A stretch of 64,000 nt of DNA. Origin: an uncultured Bacteroidales bacterium (GTDB lineage Bacteria > Bacteroidota > Bacteroidia > Bacteroidales > VadinHA17). Numbering within the stretch: position 1 is the stretch's first letter; each line of letters starts with the position of its first letter. This document shows positions 41,090 through 50,570 of the stretch, in pieces. The notes beneath the pieces were generated by a model. It did no database searches, was not told the origin of the DNA, and worked only from the letters and a program-made list of their open reading frames with translations. A program made the translations under genes and the position numbers. Location of the stretch: the NCBI GenBank assembly GCA_963732575.1, contig CAVTAA010000002.1, forward strand, positions 192,509-256,508. The letters are read 5' to 3'.

Positions 41090-43309
41090 TCAGTTTATTG
41101 AAGCCATCGTTCTCAGTATGGACGCTGCCCAGGAATATATATTATGTCTTACAATCAACATCCTCATGTGCTTCATTCTCTGGTTTTGTTCTTCCGGAGG
41201 CATTTCCAATGCATCTTTTATCGCATCAGCTGCTTCTTCAATATCGTAGGGATTAATGATAATTGCGCTCTGAAGTTCCTGGGATGCCCCGGTGAACCGG
41301 CTCAGGATAAGAACACCGTCATTACGGTCACGGGAAGCTACAAATTCTTTCGCTACCAGGTTCATGCCGTCATGAAGCGATGTCACCATACAAAAGTTTG
41401 CTGATGAATACAACGGAGATATTTCCTGGTGGGTATGATGACGGTTGAGAAGGAGTATTGCCTTCCATTTTTTTGATTTGAATCTCAGATTAATTCTTGA
41501 AGCCTCTGCTTCAACTGCATCCATAGTGTCAGAATAGTCCTTAAGCTTCGTTCTGCTTGGTGCACCTATCTGAACGAAGGTAAATTTTTCGATATACGAA
41601 GGATTTTTCTCAAGGAATCTCTCAACCGCAAGAAATTTCTCGACAATACCTTTTGTGTAATCAATTCTGTCAACACCAATTCCGATATAATGAGACATGA
41701 TACCATGTTCTGCCAGAAAAGCATCAGCATTTACTTTAAAAGAGGCATGGTCATAGTCTTTAAGAGTAAATGCAATGCTGATGGGAAAAGGTTTAACGAT
41801 ACTTGTTCTTTTACCCATTTTAATGGAGTAATTTTCCCATAATACCCGGGACTTAAGTGCGCCATTTACTGTCTCGAGAAAATGGTTGCAGTGGTATTGG
41901 GTGTGAAAGCCGATAAGGTCAGCTCCCAACATACCCAATAATATTTCTTTCTGCCATGGACATATTCCAAATGATTCCGGATTTGGCCATGGGATATGCC
42001 AGAATATAGCTATCCTGGAATTAGGTTTTTCACTCTTAATTAATTCAGGCAATAAGGCAAAATGATAGTCCTGAATAAGAATGAACGGATTATCCTCATC
42101 TTTTACTTCCTCAAGGACAGCTTTGGCAAAATCTTCATTGACTTTTTTATAAAAGAGCCAGTCATTCTTACGGAAAGTCGGCCTGGTATGAGCAATGTGA
42201 CAGAGTGGCCACAGGCCTTCATTCGAAAAACCATAATAGTAGTGATCTTCCTCCTCTTTGGTGAGCCATACTCTTTTCAGGGTATATTTAGGTTCCTCAG
42301 GTGGCACTTCAACTTTGTTCTCGGCATTTACTGTTTCTCTGTCCGCATCTCCCATCCCCGATGCAATCCAGATTCCACCGCATGCTTCTAACACAGGTTC
42401 TATTGCAGTTATCATTCCGCTTGCAGGGACAATGCATTTAATCCTCTTTCCGTCATGAATATGCATATAAGGCTCGCGATTGGAAACCACTACTATTTTC
42501 TTATTCTGCAGAAGATTTCCCATTTCTGCCTTAAGTCGTTCCGGTGTCCAGATCGCCTCAGCTGTTGCTCTTAATCGTGCTTCTTCCTCCGCTGAAGCTT
42601 TAGCTATACGCATTTCAACTGCGATAGATTCAATCTCTTTGTGCAGAGGACCCAGAAACCTGAGATTTGATGGCGGATTATTATGCTCGACGTTTCCGGC
42701 ACGCATTGCTTTCATCCAGTTCAGAATCTTATTCATCGGGTTAAAAATCCCCCATCTTATAAGGGCGAACGTGACAAAGCCAATAAATAATGTCTGTAGG
42801 AACCAGCGCATGAAATTGCGAAACCAGATCTTACTGATGTTCTGGCCTATATACCCGGCATCAGAATAGAGTACCAGGGCACCATTTGCAAAATCAGACT
42901 TACTTACCGGTCTTATATATTGAAAAACATCTATCCCGGCGTGCTCAAAGAATGTACCGAAAGAAGAGTCCTTCTCAACGGCCTTTGGAACTAAATCTAC
43001 AGAGAAATTTATCAGGTCAAACGGTGAATTATTAAATAGCAGGCTATCCTCATCATAATAAAGCGCCAGCCCTAGTAAACCATTTCTGGCTTTAATGCTA
43101 TCTGCCAATCGCTCAAGACCTTTGTAATCCGGGTTGTCAATAATGGTTACAAGATAACCGGAAATTTCTTCTGCTCTGGCTGAAGTCAGAACTTCAAGTT
43201 CATTGTTCAGCTTACCTCTCTCAGCAGAAATCTGGAACACTGTGAACCCCAGAGCTACGAGGCTTACCGCAAGAATGATAGAGAGAATAAATGCAAGAGT
43301 ATTTCTCAT
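41090..43309 (-). CDS. otsA: Trehalose-6-phosphate synthase (GT20, OtsA-like) fused to an N-terminal TM / periplasmic sensor / TM / HAMP-like region
   Basis: Intact 739 aa. GT20 core VVVSNREPY..., GFSNEGLWPLCH, IQDYHFALLP and LIGFHTQYH. The N-terminal 260 aa has two TM helices and FNPMNKILNWMKAMRAGNV...LGPLHKEIESIAVEM. Confidence 0.85.
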   Translation of the reverse strand: MRNTLAFILSIILAVSLVALGFTVFQISAERGKLNNELEVLTSARAEEISGYLVTIIDNPDYKGLERLADSIKARNGLLGLALYYDEDSLLFNNSPFDLINFSVDLVPKAVEKDSSFGTFFEHAGIDVFQYIRPVSKSDFANGALVLYSDAGYIGQNISKIWFRNFMRWFLQTLFIGFVTFALIRWGIFNPMNKILNWMKAMRAGNVEHNNPPSNLRFLGPLHKEIESIAVEMRIAKASAEEEARLRATAEAIWTPERLKAEMGNLLQNKKIVVVSNREPYMHIHDGKRIKCIVPASGMITAIEPVLEACGGIWIASGMGDADRETVNAENKVEVPPEEPKYTLKRVWLTKEEEDHYYYGFSNEGLWPLCHIAHTRPTFRKNDWLFYKKVNEDFAKAVLEEVKDEDNPFILIQDYHFALLPELIKSEKPNSRIAIFWHIPWPNPESFGICPWQKEILLGMLGADLIGFHTQYHCNHFLETVNGALKSRVLWENYSIKMGKRTSIVKPFPISIAFTLKDYDHASFKVNADAFLAEHGIMSHYIGIGVDRIDYTKGIVEKFLAVERFLEKNPSYIEKFTFVQIGAPSRTKLKDYSDTMDAVEAEASRINLRFKSKKWKAILLLNRHHTHQEISPLYSSANFCMVTSLHDGMNLVAKEFVASRDRNDGVLILSRFTGASQELQSAIIINPYDIEEAADAIKDALEMPPEEQNQRMKHMRMLIVRHNIYSWAASILRTMASIN

Positions 43310-43441
43310 TCGGTTAATTGCTGTAATAATTTTTCCACTTCAAAAATATCCTCGAATTTATATCTGGCATAGGTTGCTCCAGTTCCGATTCCCGGGAAGA
43401 TTCAGTTATACTAACAACTGCCCGGTGTAACTGAATAATTC

Positions 43442-43449
43442 CAAAGTTA
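43442..43449 (-). promoter_or_regulatory. Candidate -7 box for the otsA-like gene
   Basis: The coding strand reads TAACTTTG, a perfect TAnnTTTG, about 130 nt upstream of the ATG at 43309. Confidence 0.3.
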
Positions 43450-43526
43450 CCAAATGTTTACTGTCGAGGCAATTTTATTGTCAGATGGGTAGAGTGAAAT
43501 TCTGCAACGCAGTCCAAATGCATTAG

Positions 43527-43534
43527 TATCTTTG
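43527..43534 (+). promoter_or_regulatory. Candidate -7 box for the GH15 gene
   Basis: TATCTTTG (TAnnTTTG), 72 nt upstream of the ATG at 43606. Confidence 0.3.
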
Positions 43535-43605
43535 TCAGTGTATTTCTTGTCTACCCACTTTCGGTTGATTGGTAGACGATTTGTTAACCTTAATTATGAT
43601 TTTAT

Positions 43606-45399
43606 ATGGATAATCTTAATTATGGTGTTATTGGGAACGGCAGGAGTGCCGCTCTTGTTTCGGATAAAGGCAGTATTGACTGGTGTTGCCTTCCTGACTT
43701 TGATTCCCCTTCAATGTTTGCTAAATTGCTTGATAGTGATAAGGGTGGGAGTTTTGAAATTATTGTTGACGATTCGTACAGCATATCTCAAAAGTACCTC
43801 TACCGGACAAACATACTTTGCACAGAATTCAAATCGACGGAAGGAACCTTTGAAGTCATCGATTTTATGCCAAGGTATAAAACGTCTGACCAGGACTACT
43901 TTGCCCCTGCCGAGTTATACCGATATATAAAATATATATCCGGAAAACCCTCATTCAGAGTAAAATATTGTCCCGCCTTTAATTATGCGCGAGAAGCAGT
44001 CGCCAGTATATCAGATGAAGAATGTATTGTAACATATTCAATTGAAAAACCTACAGATTGTATATATCTCTATACCAGCCTGAATTTTAATGATGTTCTC
44101 GAATCGAATAATATCGAACTTACACAACACCAGTTTATTTTACTGTCATACAATCAGAAAATTATTAAAATTGATATCAAAAGGGTCTACCTGGAGTTTC
44201 AGCGCACAAAAGTCTATTGGCTTAACTGGACAAACCGGTCCAGAAGATTTAAAAAATATCAGGAAGAAATAATAAGAAGTCAGCTGGTTTTAAAAATAAT
44301 GTCATTTCAATCTACCGGGGCTTTGCTTGCAGCACTGACAACCAGTATCCCTGAAACTATTGGTGAAGCCCGTAACTGGGATTATCGGTTCTGCTGGTTA
44401 CGTGATGCTTCGATGTCATTGGATACATTGCTTAATATGGGGCATTTTTATTCTGCACAGCGCTTCATGGGTTATTTGAAAGGTATTTTGAAGTCAAAAA
44501 ATGACACGTTCCAGATTATGTATGGCATCAGGGGTGAGCGTGAACTGACAGAACAGGAGCTACCTCATCTTGCAGGTTATGAAAATTCAAAACCTGTAAG
44601 AATTGGCAATGCAGCATTTTCACAAAGGCAAAATGATGTTTTTGGATATCTGCTGCATGTTATTTACCAGTATTATAAATTTTTTCCCGGCACATTAGAC
44701 GAAGTTGAAGATATATGGGAGATTGTACGACTGATTTGCCGGACGATTTCCACTCACTGGGAAAAGCCGGACAAGGGTATCTGGGAAATAAGGAATGAGG
44801 AGAAGCATTTTGTTATCTCAAAAGTAATGAGCTGGGTAGCTATGGACAGGGCAGTGAAAATTGCCGGATTACTTAATAAGAATAACTATGCTGAATCGTG
44901 GAGAGGAATTGCTGATGATATTAAAGAGGATGTATTAAAGAACGGATGGAAAGAGGACCTGCAGACCTTTACAAGAGCGTATAATGATTCAGATCTTGAT
45001 GCCTCTTTGCTCCTGATGGCTGAATATGGTTTTATTGATCCCTTTGATCCTAAGTATAAAAAAACAGTCATTGCCGTAAAGAAGGAGCTCTTTAATAACG
45101 GACTTGTTTATCGCTATATCAGTGCCGATGATTTTGGCAAGCCAAGCTCCTCATTTACAATATGTACTTTCTGGTTGATCCAGGCACTTTTCAGAATAGG
45201 AGAAAAAGATGAGGCAAAAAAAATATTTGAGGACTTATTGACTTATGGAAATCACCTCGGGCTTTTCAGTGAAGATATTGACTTCTCCACGAAGCGATTA
45301 CTTGGTAATTTCCCTCAGGCATATTCACACCTGGCTTTAATTAATTCAGCAACTTTATTTTCAGAAGAGGACATTTTGCCGAAATTCATCATGCCCTGA
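43606..45399 (+). CDS. Glycoside hydrolase family 15 (glucoamylase/trehalase-like)
   Basis: Intact 597 aa. N-terminus MDNLNYGVIGNGRSAALVSDKGSIDWCCLPDFDSPSMFAKLL, then NWDYRFCWLRDAS is typical GH15. Divergent from the otsA-like gene. Confidence 0.85.
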   Translation: MDNLNYGVIGNGRSAALVSDKGSIDWCCLPDFDSPSMFAKLLDSDKGGSFEIIVDDSYSISQKYLYRTNILCTEFKSTEGTFEVIDFMPRYKTSDQDYFAPAELYRYIKYISGKPSFRVKYCPAFNYAREAVASISDEECIVTYSIEKPTDCIYLYTSLNFNDVLESNNIELTQHQFILLSYNQKIIKIDIKRVYLEFQRTKVYWLNWTNRSRRFKKYQEEIIRSQLVLKIMSFQSTGALLAALTTSIPETIGEARNWDYRFCWLRDASMSLDTLLNMGHFYSAQRFMGYLKGILKSKNDTFQIMYGIRGERELTEQELPHLAGYENSKPVRIGNAAFSQRQNDVFGYLLHVIYQYYKFFPGTLDEVEDIWEIVRLICRTISTHWEKPDKGIWEIRNEEKHFVISKVMSWVAMDRAVKIAGLLNKNNYAESWRGIADDIKEDVLKNGWKEDLQTFTRAYNDSDLDASLLLMAEYGFIDPFDPKYKKTVIAVKKELFNNGLVYRYISADDFGKPSSSFTICTFWLIQALFRIGEKDEAKKIFEDLLTYGNHLGLFSEDIDFSTKRLLGNFPQAYSHLALINSATLFSEEDILPKFIMP

Positions 45400-45472
45400 T
45401 GTCGCCTTTATTGTCTTTCTGGCGGTAAGAGATGAAGATGTCGCATCCGTATCCGGGGATAAGGCTGTCCAT
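45392..45472 (-). pseudogene. 5' remnant (24 codons) of a fifth TIR-TPR paralog
   Basis: The ATG at 45472 directly abuts the TGA of paralog C. It reads MDSLIPGYGCDIFISYRQKDNKGD, then runs into the antisense of the GH15 stop codon. 45400-45472 matches 47818-47890 at about 64 of 73 nt. Confidence 0.7.
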
Positions 45473-47890
45473 TCAGTTAACGGTATATTTCTCTAAGATT
45501 CTCTCAAACTCAGGATCCTGTTTTAACGGGGCCCATCTTGGATCCAGTTCCAGAATTTTGGAAGAAAGCGGGCCTGGTATTGATAATAAATAATCTATTT
45601 GCTTTATTGCCTCGTGATATTTTCCCAGCAAAACATAGGTATAAGCCAGGCTTTCAACTAAGTAAACACCTTTCCATGCCTCTTCCTTCACAGGTAACAT
45701 TCTGACAGCCTTTTCACCTGAAGTGATTGCTTTTTCTTCTAAGCCCAGGCCTGCGTAAGCAATGCCCAATGAACTGTATAATCTTTGATCCTGCGGAAAA
45801 TCAATGACCTTCTTTTCAATTAGAATCCGTGTTGAGTCATAATAAGCGTGCTCTAACTCAGGCTTGTTCATTAAACCGTAAATAAAAGCGTAGTAGAGAT
45901 ATTTTGGACGGTAATACCACTGGGCTTCAAAAATATCGAATCCGGATCGAGTAAGATTTTTCAGAGCTTCCTCATAATCGCCATCATAAATATTAATTAA
46001 AACCAGTGTTTCTAATGTAAGAGAATCCTTAAAAAAGAATGCATTTTTCCGGGTTTCATCATCCAGGAGTTCTTTTGCCCGTATCGTATTACCATCAATT
46101 TTCATATACAGCTCGGCCAGATCTTTATAAGGATATGTCCAGTCCGGATTAATAGAAAGGGTTGTATTATAGTATTGGAGTGCTTCCGGATAATTCCTGA
46201 TCAGATCAAATGTCTCCCCGGTATTAAATGCAATACGTGCAGATTTGGGAGCAAGCTTGCTGGCTTTCACAAGAAAGGATTTTGACATTTCCCAGTTCCC
46301 GTCACGACGGTAGACACACCCTGCGTAGTAAAAGGCTTCAGAATTCCCCGGTTGTTCTTTTATGACCATTTCTAACTGCTCAAGAGCCCTGGAGTAATCC
46401 AGATGACCATTGTAGTAATAAACCCCCAGCGCAAGATGTGCGTCAGGTAACTGGGGATCTATGTCGAAAGCTCTGTCAATTGCCTCTCTGCACCTCTGCA
46501 ATACCTCTTCATTACGATTATGATAGAACCAGTATTGCGATAAATAACTCATCGCAAGCCTGGTATAGGCCAAAGCAAATCCTGGATCAAGCTCAATTAC
46601 TTTTTCGTACATGTGTACTGCCTGTTCATAGTCTTGTGAATCATAACTCTTCCAGTAATAGAAGTTGCCCTGGAGATATAGATTGTATGCTTCAAGATTT
46701 TCGGTTGGTCTCTTCTCAATATTTTCAATTTCATCCGGCGTGAGTACCGCTTTCATTTCCGCAGCGATTGACTTTGCTATTTCACTCTGAAGAGAAAATA
46801 TCTGTTCAATGGTCATCTCTCTCGTATAATCATTTGACCATAAGTGCTTATCGGCTTTTGTATCAATCAGCTGAACCCATATTTTTATATTATTCCCTTC
46901 GCGTCCTACACTGCCTTCAACTAAATAATTTACATTAAGCTCGTTACCTATTGCTGTTATAGACTTCTTCGTGTCTCTGTACTGATCGGTAGATGTTCTG
47001 GATCGTACCGTAAAACTTTGAATTTTTTGCAGATTATTTAAAATCTCTTCAGTAAAACCGTCACAAAAATATAACTGGGTAGAATTGTTGCTCAGATTAC
47101 GGAAAGGCAGAACGGCAATTGATTTTTCAACTTGCTCTGATGATTTAAACAGTTTTGGAATAAATAAAAAGCCAAGGAGCGTTAATATTATGGCTATTAT
47201 AGATATTGCAAGGATCCTTGTCTTACGATTTTTTTTTCGGACAGGTTCCGACTTAATTACTTCCTTTTCTACTTCTTCTTTCTGTGTACTATATTGGGTT
47301 ATCGAAGTAATGATTTCTCTTATTGCAAGGGCAACTTTATTAATCTGATTCCGGTAATTGGTTTTATTCAGATTTTTCTCCTCGTTATCCTTTGTCGTCA
47401 GCGGTCTGTCAACGCCTGGTTCTTTGTATATGAATTCAACTCCTCTGAGAACTCCATCCAGGACAGATTCACATAGTTTTATGTCGGCAGTGTCTAAATC
47501 ATGAATACGTACCGGCAGTACCCTGCTTGCAACATTACCGTTAGGCAGTTTAACTTTCAAACCAAACTGCTCATTTGAAGCCTGTTTCACAAATGCTTTG
47601 AATTCGTGTTCCCAGGCAAATGATTTCGGATCGCAATAAGTGCGTGAGATGATTGGGATAAAGACCAGACACTTTAGTTTCTCTTTCAGGGAAGCATCAA
47701 CATCATGTGTCTCCAGCAGTCCATCATGTGGATTGATATCGTAATAAACGCTAATCTCTTCCTTGAATGTTGACTCCAGTTCTGTCTTTAAAGCGTCAAC
47801 GAATTCGCTGACCCATCTGTCGCCTTTGTTGTCTTTCTGGCGGTAAGAGATGAAGATGTCGTATTCGTATCCGGGGGCAAGACTTGCCAT
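45473..47890 (-). CDS. TIR-domain / single-TM / TolB-N-like / TPR protein, paralog C
   Basis: Intact 805 aa. MASLAPGYEYDIFISYRQKDNKGDRW and SFAWEHEF are present. TM is ILAISIIAIILTLLGFLFIP. Then KSIAVLPFRNLSNNSTQLYFCDGFTEEILNNL and TPR-like repeats. Confidence 0.85.
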   Translation of the reverse strand: MASLAPGYEYDIFISYRQKDNKGDRWVSEFVDALKTELESTFKEEISVYYDINPHDGLLETHDVDASLKEKLKCLVFIPIISRTYCDPKSFAWEHEFKAFVKQASNEQFGLKVKLPNGNVASRVLPVRIHDLDTADIKLCESVLDGVLRGVEFIYKEPGVDRPLTTKDNEEKNLNKTNYRNQINKVALAIREIITSITQYSTQKEEVEKEVIKSEPVRKKNRKTRILAISIIAIILTLLGFLFIPKLFKSSEQVEKSIAVLPFRNLSNNSTQLYFCDGFTEEILNNLQKIQSFTVRSRTSTDQYRDTKKSITAIGNELNVNYLVEGSVGREGNNIKIWVQLIDTKADKHLWSNDYTREMTIEQIFSLQSEIAKSIAAEMKAVLTPDEIENIEKRPTENLEAYNLYLQGNFYYWKSYDSQDYEQAVHMYEKVIELDPGFALAYTRLAMSYLSQYWFYHNRNEEVLQRCREAIDRAFDIDPQLPDAHLALGVYYYNGHLDYSRALEQLEMVIKEQPGNSEAFYYAGCVYRRDGNWEMSKSFLVKASKLAPKSARIAFNTGETFDLIRNYPEALQYYNTTLSINPDWTYPYKDLAELYMKIDGNTIRAKELLDDETRKNAFFFKDSLTLETLVLINIYDGDYEEALKNLTRSGFDIFEAQWYYRPKYLYYAFIYGLMNKPELEHAYYDSTRILIEKKVIDFPQDQRLYSSLGIAYAGLGLEEKAITSGEKAVRMLPVKEEAWKGVYLVESLAYTYVLLGKYHEAIKQIDYLLSIPGPLSSKILELDPRWAPLKQDPEFERILEKYTVN

Positions 47891-47899
47891 GTCGATTAA

Positions 47900-50302
47900 T
47901 TACTGGTATTTTGTCTTATATTCTGTTGTGAGAATCTTTTGAAAGCGAGGTAAATCGCGCAGTTTATCGTAAGCCGGATCAATTTTAAGCAGCGGAACAG
48001 ACAACTCACCCGGGATTGTTAGGAGATATTCAATCTTATCCATTGCCAGATCATATTCTCCTGCAAGTATATAAATATTAGCAAGATCATTCTCCTTTAC
48101 AAATCCTTGCCAAACATCCATTTTCATTGGCTTAAGTTTTACGGCTTTTTGTGCGCTTTCGATAGCTTTTTTATTCTCTCCTTTATAAGCATAAGCATAT
48201 CCCAGGGCTGCATAAAACCTGTCATCATCAGGGAATTTCCTGATTTTCAAATTTAACTCAGTGATAGCAGAATCCGCATATCTCCTGCTCATCTGAATAT
48301 TTGAATTAAGAAAGTAAGCCTTTGCGAGATTTAAAGTCTTCGGAAAGTAGTTAAATTGAGTTTCAGTTTTTTCTGTTACTTGTAATAACTTATCAAATTT
48401 CCTGCTGTAATAATAATAGCTGTCCCCGGGATAGTAGTAAAACCACAATTCTGAATTACTTAACTCTGATACTTTCAGAGCTTCTTCTACATTACCCTTC
48501 CATAAAAGGATAGTCTGAAATTTGTCATATTTGATTTTTGTATCGGGATCAAGCTGTATCCCTAAAACCTGCGGTCTGTTAAAAAGATCCATAGCCTCAG
48601 AATATCTCCTTAACAAACGGTAGGAATAACCTGCCTCAATGATATATTCTCCATTAAACGGATCTAAAAGAAAGTACTTTTGTACTTCTTTCAGGTGTTC
48701 CTCCCAGAGTCCATTCCGTCGCAATACAAAACTTTTAAGATAAATACAATCTGAGAAATTTGGTGTTTGAGATAACAATTCATTCAATAATTCCAAGGCT
48801 CTGTCATTATCCCGATCAAGATTATAGAGCAACCTTGCTTGCGTAAATTTCACTCCAGGCAGATCGGGATTTATCTTCATTACAGTTTCAATATCTTCTC
48901 TTGCCAAATGATCAAAATCTTGCCAACTTTCAAAGTTTTTATACTCGTCTTTTGTAAAAAATATGTTGCTGTAATAAGAGGCTCTAAATAAATATGCCAA
49001 AACAAATTCCGGATCATGCTCAATGGCTTTATCCAGCATTCTGATCGCTGAATCCTGCTTTATTTCTGATGAATATTGTATTGCTCTGAGATAATAATCG
49101 TAAGCTATCGGATTTTTTGTTGGAATTTGCCGGATCTGGCTTTCTTCCTGACTTGTAAGAATAGCTTTTAATTCCCTGGCAACATTTTGAGCTACCTCAG
49201 TCTGTATTGAGAAAATATCCGCAAGGTTTTTATCATATGTTTCTGACCATAAATGCGTATCAGTTCTTGCGTCAATTAGTTGTGCGGTAATTCGTACATT
49301 GCTCCCGATCTTTTGTACACTGCCCTCGAGGATTGAAGAGACACCTAGCTCTTTGGAGATCTCTCTTAAAGAGAGTTCTGTATTCTTATATTTCTTCGTT
49401 GAAGTGCTGGAAATTACTTTTAGTTCACCAACCTTGAACAGGTGGTTTAAAATTGCCTCCACAACACCATCACTGAAATATTCTTGTTCAGGATCATTGC
49501 TGAGATTAACAAATGGTAACACAGCAACGGATTTTTCAGTTGGTTCTGAAGACTTAAACAACTTAGGAATAGTAAAATACCCAATGAATATCAGTACCAG
49601 CAAAATGACTGATGTAATAATAATCTTTGTTTTCAGGCTCTTAGGCTTTTTGTGATTTGCCTTAGTAACATTTTTTGTACCCTCTGCATTCTGTTGATTA
49701 TGCTTTTTTATTGCAGTAATTATCTCTTTAACAGCATTTGCAACTTTATTGATCTGATCGCGATAATAAGTCTTATTCAGGTTGTCCTGAGGGTGATCTT
49801 CATTGGCTCTCAAAGGACGATTTACACCAGATGACTTATAAATAAACTCTATGCATCGAAGTACTTCCTCAAGTTCATTCTCAAGAAGTGTATCATCGTC
49901 CGGGTCGAGATCATGAATCTTGATTGGCAATATCCTGCTGGCAACATTCCCACTTGCAAGTTTCAGGTCTCTTCCAAACCTGTCTTCCTTTGCCAGCTTA
50001 TTAAATGCGCAAAACTCGTGTTGCCAGGCAAAGCTTTTTGAATTGCAATAAGTTCTTGATATTACAGGAATGAAGATCAGGCATTTCAATTTATCCTCCA
50101 GAGAGCGATTTACTAAATGGGTTTCAAGTAAGCCATCTTGTGGATTGATATCAAAATAAACTGATATTTTGTCCTTAATGTTAGCCTCTAGTTCTTTGTT
50201 GAGATTATTTACAAACTCAGTAACCCAGCCATCATATTTATTATCATTCTGACGGTAACTAATGAAGATGTCGTATTCAAAGCCTGGGATGATGCTTGAC
50301 AT
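47900..50302 (-). CDS. TIR-domain / single-TM / TolB-N-like / TPR protein, paralog D
   Basis: Intact, 800 aa from MSSIIPGFEYDIFISYRQNDNKYDGW (the track ORF extends to 50356). SFAWQHEF is present. TM is IIITSVILLVLIFIGYFTIP. Then KSVAVLPFVNLSNDPEQEYFSDGVVEAILNHL. 9-nt spacer to paralog C. Confidence 0.85.
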   Translation of the reverse strand: MSSIIPGFEYDIFISYRQNDNKYDGWVTEFVNNLNKELEANIKDKISVYFDINPQDGLLETHLVNRSLEDKLKCLIFIPVISRTYCNSKSFAWQHEFCAFNKLAKEDRFGRDLKLASGNVASRILPIKIHDLDPDDDTLLENELEEVLRCIEFIYKSSGVNRPLRANEDHPQDNLNKTYYRDQINKVANAVKEIITAIKKHNQQNAEGTKNVTKANHKKPKSLKTKIIITSVILLVLIFIGYFTIPKLFKSSEPTEKSVAVLPFVNLSNDPEQEYFSDGVVEAILNHLFKVGELKVISSTSTKKYKNTELSLREISKELGVSSILEGSVQKIGSNVRITAQLIDARTDTHLWSETYDKNLADIFSIQTEVAQNVARELKAILTSQEESQIRQIPTKNPIAYDYYLRAIQYSSEIKQDSAIRMLDKAIEHDPEFVLAYLFRASYYSNIFFTKDEYKNFESWQDFDHLAREDIETVMKINPDLPGVKFTQARLLYNLDRDNDRALELLNELLSQTPNFSDCIYLKSFVLRRNGLWEEHLKEVQKYFLLDPFNGEYIIEAGYSYRLLRRYSEAMDLFNRPQVLGIQLDPDTKIKYDKFQTILLWKGNVEEALKVSELSNSELWFYYYPGDSYYYYSRKFDKLLQVTEKTETQFNYFPKTLNLAKAYFLNSNIQMSRRYADSAITELNLKIRKFPDDDRFYAALGYAYAYKGENKKAIESAQKAVKLKPMKMDVWQGFVKENDLANIYILAGEYDLAMDKIEYLLTIPGELSVPLLKIDPAYDKLRDLPRFQKILTTEYKTKYQ

Positions 50303-50508
50303 CAGGGTTCTATTTAATTCATTATCAAAAATAAACCTAAGTAAGGCCAAATGCAAATATTAGTTTACATTGGTAGGACAAAATCCTTAATTGATTTCCC
50401 TTTGACAAGGGTTTTAAAGATGTCGTTGATCAAATTAGCACTAGAATGGTGTTAATCACCAAAGACCACTGTTTATTGGAAAACGATTTCGTTGGAATTC
50501 TACCAAAA

Positions 50509-50530
50509 ACCTAGCAAGAACCTAGCAAGA
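50509..50530. repeat. Perfect 11-nt tandem duplication
   Basis: ACCTAGCAAGA ACCTAGCAAGA, read directly from the sequence. Confidence 0.8.
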
Positions 50531-50570
50531 TGAAAAAACCACTTATCAGGATTTCTTGTTAAGTAATTGA

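Follow-up and report, generated by a model that had tools for sequence, protein, structure and literature searches.

A gene-start remnant behind a TIR-like/TPR gene in an uncultured Bacteroidales genome: a probably old tandem copy at a lineage-specific junction

The window considered here is a 64,000-nt stretch of DNA from an uncultured Bacteroidales bacterium of the VadinHA17 lineage (GenBank assembly GCA_963732575.1, contig CAVTAA010000002.1, positions 192,509 to 256,508). It holds several paralogous genes encoding a TIR-like domain and a TPR region, and the subject of this analysis is a 72-nt fragment of such a gene, hereafter the stub, at 45401-45472 on the minus strand. The stub is lodged between two convergent genes: on one side paralog C (45473-47890, minus strand), whose 805-amino acid product carries a TIR-like N-terminal domain, a transmembrane segment, a TolB_N-like domain and a TPR region, with paralog D (47900-50302, minus strand) lying 9 nt further upstream; on the other side a GH15 trehalase-like gene (43606-45399, plus strand; stop codon 45397-45399). 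Read on the minus strand, the end of C (GTTAAC) and its TGA (45473-45475) directly abut an ATG at 45472, which continues as GAC AGC CTT and opens a run of 24 codons, ending in GGC GAC, that encode MDSLIPGYGCDIFISYRQKDNKGD. An earlier note on this DNA had described just such a truncated gene start, comprising the first 24 codons, immediately behind the TGA of C, and the minus-strand sequence bears this out; the fragment is read here as the start of a lost downstream paralog, which we call X. Three further codons and a stop (ATC AGG GCA TGA, encoding IRA) lie within the GH15 coding end and complete an incidental 27-codon open reading frame (ORF; 45389-45472, minus strand) with the translation MDSLIPGYGCDIFISYRQKDNKGDIRA and then a stop.

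When positions 45400-45472 are aligned with the 5' ends of the four paralogs, one of two checks that the earlier note had named, 65 of 73 positions are identical to C (89%; 47818-47890), with 74% identity to A, 70% to D and ~58% to B. A nucleotide profile of the family's 5' end finds the stub over model positions 1-79 (nhmmer, E=1e-15), and no chance match of this kind arose in 100 shuffled sequences. The stub is a truncated 5' fragment of a TIR-like/TPR family gene, the match being specific and closest to C. The degree of homology to C is about as first described, except that 64 of 73 had been counted, and the single mismatch reported for the distal tract is again one base, counted over 42 nt here where 44 nt had been claimed. 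Homology starts at the start codon and ends abruptly at 45400/45401, with the coding end of GH15 next. The placing of that end at exactly 45400 holds in so far as the fragment abuts the GH15 stop and the homology of relatives stops there; the last stub codon ends at 45401, and base 45400 can be assigned to either the stub or the GH15 flank.

The same position bounds the otsA-GH15 block (41059-45400), which at 88-93% identity is the only part of the neighbourhood with nucleotide homology to close relatives, here contigs L166, L167 and L168. As this homology ends at 45400, the stub and the GH15 stop lie edge to edge and share one base at most, and the point of loss coincides with the end of the otsA/GH15 block, as had been proposed. 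The GH15 proteins encoded on the three contigs are 93-94% identical to that of the window; there is no TIR-like gene downstream of GH15 in any of them, and they share mutually only ~12 nt beyond the GH15 stop before diverging. Given this divergence among the three contigs and the window, the 3' side of GH15 is a rearrangement point in the whole group, and the stub-GH15 junction is, to judge from nucleotide comparison, specific to the window's own lineage. Scanning GTDB species representatives with GH15 returned distant relatives only (at most 77% amino acid identity), in which the otsA-GH15 pair is kept without further synteny. No TIR-like gene lies within 10 kb in these representatives, which are too distant to show an empty site. 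Insertion of an otsA-GH15-MBL block into a gene of which paralog B would be the remainder was considered and rejected, since B possesses a promoter and a complete 5' end of its own and shares only ~58% identity with the stub. The otsB gene, which encodes a 247-amino acid trehalose-phosphatase, is absent from the window at 43390-43425, where ~700 nt are missing; L167 and L168 have it between otsA and GH15, and in L166 it is present in disrupted form.

Orthologs of C were gathered by protein search and their contigs examined for the corresponding junction. A family gene start behind the stop codon of C recurs in 11 other lineages (12 with the window) whose C proteins are 60-91% identical to that of the window, and in all lineages that keep the C-terminal residues KYTVN before the stop it begins directly, or one base, after that stop. 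Flanking genes differ on both sides in every ortholog contig, and the length of the stub ranges from ~6 to 160 nt. In order of falling identity of C, it measures 57 nt in L081/L082 (91%), where unrelated DNA follows, and ~101 nt with an in-frame TAA in L084-L086 (89%), where an MBL-fold gene follows; in L169 (86%) the ATG has become AGG and the decayed fragment is recognisable to ~43 nt; in L083, L087 and L088 (83%) 18 nt are succeeded by 70 nt and then by another full paralog with its own promoter. L170 (82%) carries an intact gene at the junction (TGA ATG GCC AGC CTG ATC...), which runs for at least 175 codons to the contig end. Among the more distant lineages there are ~40 decayed nt in L089 (74%), ~6 nt and then the stop of a convergent gene in L171 (69%), ~125 decayed nt in L172/L173 (69%), decayed traces in L090 (67%) and L091 (65%), and 160 nt with an insertion in L097/L098 (60%). 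Intact X is found on the L170 contig only, with stubs and unrelated DNA in all the others, and the window's nearest relatives by C, L081 (91%) and L085 (89%), already have a stub only.

Because such stubs follow C orthologs down to ~60% identity in different contexts, the junction between C and X, and probably the truncation too, predates this genome; on the evidence of these alignments, the C-X junction is long older than the window's junction with GH15. A search of related genomes for an ancestral full-length copy was the second check that the earlier note had named, and the intact gene of L170 supplies one; together with the specificity of the family 5' fragment in the window, it upholds the claim that the array once held a third tandem copy (D, C and the remnant). 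Two details of these contigs may be recorded alongside. In L171 (8422-8433) the stop of the convergent gene lies 9 nt past the stop of the C ortholog with its ~6 nt stub, an arrangement as tight as that at GH15, and in L084 the C ortholog (89%) is immediately preceded by an IS21-type element (transposase and IstB; 146-2415). Orthology between the MBL-fold gene that follows the stub of L085 and the window's own MBL-fold gene (39120-40127) was considered and set aside, there being no BLASTP similarity between them.

The stub is a mosaic. Its proximal segment (45443-45472, codons 1-10) is decayed and departs from the family consensus by three replacements, A2D, E9G and Y10C; all members of two family alignments (25 and 32 sequences) have Tyr10, the GAC at codon 2 is used by 0 of 90 functional family genes, and 23 of these 30 nt are identical to the window's own C versus 26 of 30 to the L081 stub. 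The distal segment (45401-45442, codons 11-24) has no replacement and is identical to C (47819-47860) at 41 of 42 nt. Within it, stub and C have in common the serine codon TCT, which is used by 2 of 86 family genes, the family mostly having AGC or AGT; in L097, both the stub and the neighbouring gene have TCC. When the window stub was compared by BLAST with 87 family 5' ends, its own C was the top match. Across stubs, the 5' end of the upstream neighbour heads the ~90 matches for the window, L107 and L151 and ranks third for L097; the L085 gene itself lay outside the database used for these stub matches, in which the identical L084 copy ranked third. Near-identity of the distal segment to C is best explained by gene conversion with the C 5' end (47819-47890), the stub's homolog and likely partner, and if the tract has been homogenised in this way its one-mismatch similarity says nothing on the age of the remnant.

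Several kinds of function were sought at the stub. Constraint at the protein level is absent, since the invariant Tyr10 is replaced and the ORF is not kept in orthologous stubs: its length is 27 codons in the window, 46 in L172, 20 in L081 and 7 in L085, where codon 8 is a stop, and in L169 the ATG is lost. The finding that would count against a remnant, according to the earlier note, was a functional small ORF kept by related genomes; what is conserved is the sequence and not the ORF, as seen in the TAA of L085, the AGG of L169 and the differing points of truncation. Neither strand of the stub folds better than shuffled sequences (z = +0.56 and +0.89), there are no terminator-like sites at the stub between the convergent genes, and a search of Rfam at the stub returned no relevant family. 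By these measures the stub is seemingly inert, an ordinary non-functional gene remnant.

Remnants of this kind are a feature of the family at large. Full-length genes were masked in 85 loci; a nucleotide profile covering the first 600 nt, together with 92 full-length proteins as queries, then uncovered ~18 orphan 5' fragments, all beginning at model position 1 and all of 213 nt or less, together with four near-full-length pseudogenes (L095, L101, L113 and L156) and only 3-4 fragments of the 3' region. The asymmetry between 5' and 3' fragments may partly be an effect of detection, conservation being ~85-90% in the N-terminal domain and far lower at the C-terminus. Orphan 5' stubs are common after the terminal genes of arrays (L107, L151, L143, L120, L130, L116, L165, L119, L108 and L083, the last at 3408-3520), and in L130 a 5' stub is joined to a 3' fragment, pointing to an internal deletion. 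Birth and death within the family shows clearly in its stubs, in its pseudogenes and in the D/C chimera of L081 described below.

The wider setting of D, C and the stub is a variable segment on the 3' side of a tRNA-Gln gene (CTG; 56189-56262, minus strand). At its proximal edge, just upstream of D, lies an att-like remnant (attachment site-like; 50507-50702, minus strand) made up of a degenerate partial tRNA-Gln 3' half and a stretch termed flank B, and the 5.5-kb block between this remnant and the tRNA encodes a serpin, an LVIVD-repeat protein, two OMP beta-barrel proteins and an ECF sigma factor. No integrase was found within 50.5-56.2 kb of the window. No att-like tRNA-Gln repeat lies next to the stub, the only one being upstream of D, and the stub does not itself behave as an att repeat: its only other close copy is the 5' end of C, with B, which lies across the otsA-GH15-MBL block, at ~58% and possessing a full 5' end of its own. 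L081 has the GlnS - tRNA-Gln backbone in common with the window; in addition, the 3' end of the tRNA is partially repeated there three times, each time after a conserved 'right end' of ~130 nt, with the C ortholog and stub of L081 as the cargo of one 3.1-kb module between partial tRNA-Gln repeats (relevant positions in L081: 948-1021, 1265-1297, 4379-4421 and 8281-8326). The tRNA-Gln is an accretion site for small modules without an integrase, and it is through this variable setting that the neighbours of C differ in every genome. In the L081 C ortholog, moreover, the body of C is joined to the promoter and opening 15 nt of D (1584-1647 versus window 50288-50351); recombination between the conserved 5' ends has apparently removed the body of D, and so these conserved 5' ends do recombine. 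In L167, a tRNA-Gln (TTG; 12653-12726) lies 0.85 kb downstream of a GH15 gene whose product is 93% identical to the window's, in the same orientation as the tRNA-Gln (CTG) of the window; GH15 and tRNA-Gln may be an old synteny, which is suggestive only, given that the anticodons TTG and CTG belong to different isoacceptors.

Taken together, we consider it likely that the 72-nt segment is an old, non-functional remnant of the start of X, that X once stood in tandem after C, and that this lineage alone has the junction with GH15. On such an account X would formerly have followed C with its ATG directly behind the stop codon of C, and both the junction of C with X and, probably, the first truncation would be old. 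The stub would have persisted in the narrow space beside the stop of C, where further deletions would harm C itself; its distal two thirds would have been held similar to functional 5' ends by conversion with C, with the first 10 codons left to decay freely. Its present right end would date from a deletion or rearrangement confined to this lineage, through which it came to adjoin the first base beyond the GH15 stop, an event that would fall inside the variable zone on the 3' side of tRNA-Gln. Several observations weigh against this account. Among the genomes found, none is near enough to reveal what immediately preceded the GH15 junction. In a tree built on the body of C, L170 with its intact X is nested among stub-bearing lineages, which implies either at least three to four independent truncations of X, none leaving more than 160 nt, or the re-extension of an old stub by recombination in L170. 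The first 18 nt of the stub are identical between lineages at 14-17 of 18 positions, against 0.63-0.73 for synonymous positions within C's final 100 codons, and the GAC at codon 2 is common to the stubs of three distant lineages; some constraint beyond gene conversion could be at work here. Most of the conservation of the first 18 nt can be put down to conversion from functional 5' ends, themselves strongly conserved; the shared GAC is left without explanation.

How recent the loss was is the question on which the earlier note and the present analysis part, the note having taken the stub as direct evidence of recent turnover. That a full-length third copy persisted until lately and was lost in one event at the GH15 stop, with the similarity of stub and C being that of a young duplication, is favoured by a distal tract one base away from C, by a fragment ending exactly at the GH15 block and, in L170, by the demonstration that a full-length X is possible at this junction. 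The occurrence of stubs behind C in 11 further lineages, with identity of C falling as low as ~60%, the presence of nothing but a stub in the nearest relatives, L081 and L085, and the mosaic of three replacements in codons 1-10 (including the invariant Tyr10) and none in codons 11-24 nonetheless make this account improbable; the rare TCT shared with C suggests conversion and not a young duplicate of the whole gene, and the claim of recency is the one part of the earlier interpretation that does not survive. A mistaken assembly, in which the end of a contig of the repeated family 5' region was joined to a GH15 contig, would also place the junction exactly at a gene end and draw on a multi-copy repeat. 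A join mediated by that repeat should run into the body of another paralog, however, and not into unrelated DNA; equivalent stubs recur in assemblies that are independent and differ in sample and source (L081/L082, L084-L086 and L172/L173), and the source contig exceeds 1 Mb, which together leave an artefact extremely unlikely.

A different question is whether the stub has been kept for a purpose. It might serve at the array's end as a homology anchor, through which recombination with the 5' ends of paralogs would duplicate, delete or replace the terminal gene, or as part of the 3' untranslated region of C or an element of its translation, and it is true that all C orthologs examined have the junction, that conservation is higher over the first 18 nt than at synonymous sites nearby, that 5' ends do recombine (D's promoter and 15 nt on the C body in L081) and that an intact X is nested among stub lineages in L170. 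Lengths from ~6 to ~160 nt, heavy decay in L169, L089, L090, L091 and L172, the lack of a common structure, terminator, RNA family or conserved ORF, and a run of only ~31 nt of perfect identity on which RecA-type recombination could act tell against use, for which we see little likelihood. An extension of the same idea, to which we give equally little credence, is that 5' stubs at array ends in general are maintained, by conversion or selection, as homology anchors near the consensus, through which a terminal gene is looped out, duplicated or replaced, or a full gene is re-created, perhaps as in L170; if it were true, the stubs would form a recombinase-free cassette-exchange site in the tRNA-Gln-linked variable zone. 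At most, the window's stub could offer ~40 nt of near-perfect homology for looping out or duplicating C. Selection might instead act on the length of what remains. Isolated TIR domains can be toxic NADases, and truncations that retain a whole TIR-like domain without its sensor may be harmful, such that only cuts within the first ~70 codons survive, before Glu96, the residue of the WEHEF motif that is invariant across family alignments and lies at ~nt 286. All of the ~18 orphan 5' stubs, at 213 nt or less, conform to this, and just one longer TIR-containing remnant was found (L113). The pseudogenes of L095 and L156, with stops at codons 351 and 406, nevertheless keep the whole domain; the same bias in length follows from slow, neutral deletion beside a needed gene, as a remnant lying against the stop of such a gene can simply be the last part to be deleted; and the domain is divergent, with TIR_2 matches below threshold and NADase activity only presumed. 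We hold such a filter to be unlikely, if somewhat less so than a recent loss or a retained function, and retain the reading of an old and inert remnant.

Comparison with better-known systems sets this remnant in context. It resembles the products of birth-and-death gene evolution in being a partial copy beside full paralogs, with replacements at conserved residues and a length that varies between lineages, but differs from them in being unusually long-lived at one junction (to ~60% identity) and partly homogenised with its functional neighbour. The mosaic structure, with a tract near-identical to the neighbour down to a rare synonymous codon and a diverged flank, is what is seen in concerted evolution between pseudogenes and their paralogs; here, however, the case for conversion is a comparative one. 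Orphan modules of Rhs and CdiA are likewise truncated copies directly downstream of a full gene that keep a conserved piece usable as homology for recombination, but where these keep a variable functional tip and an immunity gene, the stub keeps only a conserved N-terminal, 5' piece and no cargo. There is also a likeness to duplicated att sites and CIME-like accretion (cis-mobilisable elements) at tRNA genes, in that the locus lies 3' of tRNA-Gln, the L081 module is bounded by partial tRNA-Gln copies and the window has a degenerate copy; the stub differs in being the 5' end of a protein gene, without a matching repeat at the other boundary or an integrase in the segment. Taken alone the stub is of little consequence, a remnant at the seam between a severed tandem array and a conserved trehalose-metabolism block. 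Two points are of modest wider interest: similarity within one genome can mislead dating, with an old remnant made to look young through partial homogenisation with its neighbour; and the regular occurrence of short 5' stubs behind terminal array genes, together with recombining 5' ends as in L081, makes the family a workable case for the turnover of a large and uncharacterised set of Bacteroidota membrane sensors whose TIR-like domain is cytoplasmic.

As regards the parent domain, 'TIR-like' is a fair label, although the evidence for TIR from profiles and structural models is weak. The Pfam TIR_2 profile (PF13676) scores 16.5-17.1 bits against the N-terminus of C, under the cut-off of 28 bits, and gives sub-threshold matches in 24 of 25 family members (best E=1.4e-4); an FxsC TIR-like profile matches C with E=0.0024, and in a PDB profile search the TIR of flax L6 ranks first, with E=0.39. 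A low-confidence AlphaFold2 (AF2) model of the N-terminus (mean predicted local distance difference test score, pLDDT, 59) submitted to Foldseek has its best PDB matches among bacterial TIR domains (BtpA, E=1.2e-3, and AbTir), MAL and TLR2, with TM-scores of 0.32-0.48. By likeness to TIR NADases, Glu96 may be taken as catalytic. Defence models in PADLOC gave no match for full-length C and one weak match for its N-terminal 170 residues (PDC-S66, E=0.0012), a literature search on this domain architecture yielded nothing specific, and look-ups with the exact GH15 and C proteins of the window returned no recorded identical protein. The periplasmic part of C is similar to CadC/HilA-type sensor modules with TolB_N-like and TPR domains, and its residues 748-800 match the NCBIfam 'TPR end-of-group' model at 44 bits against a cut-off of 32.

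Other features of the window may be noted briefly. The serpin-family gene (50567-52096) adjoins the array; the Pfam domain begins only at residue 144 of the listed ORF, the 5' part of which overlaps the att-like remnant, and the true start is probably further downstream than that listed. Paralogs A (28042-30510) and B (36262-38655) are both on the minus strand. The motif TCTTTCGTAACTTTATCA occurs at 30520-30564, 38665-38709 and 40150-40194, 10-70 nt upstream of A, B and the MBL-fold gene (39120-40127) respectively; we take it to resemble the -7 promoter box of Bacteroidota (TAnnTTTG), and it is also present upstream of many C orthologs.

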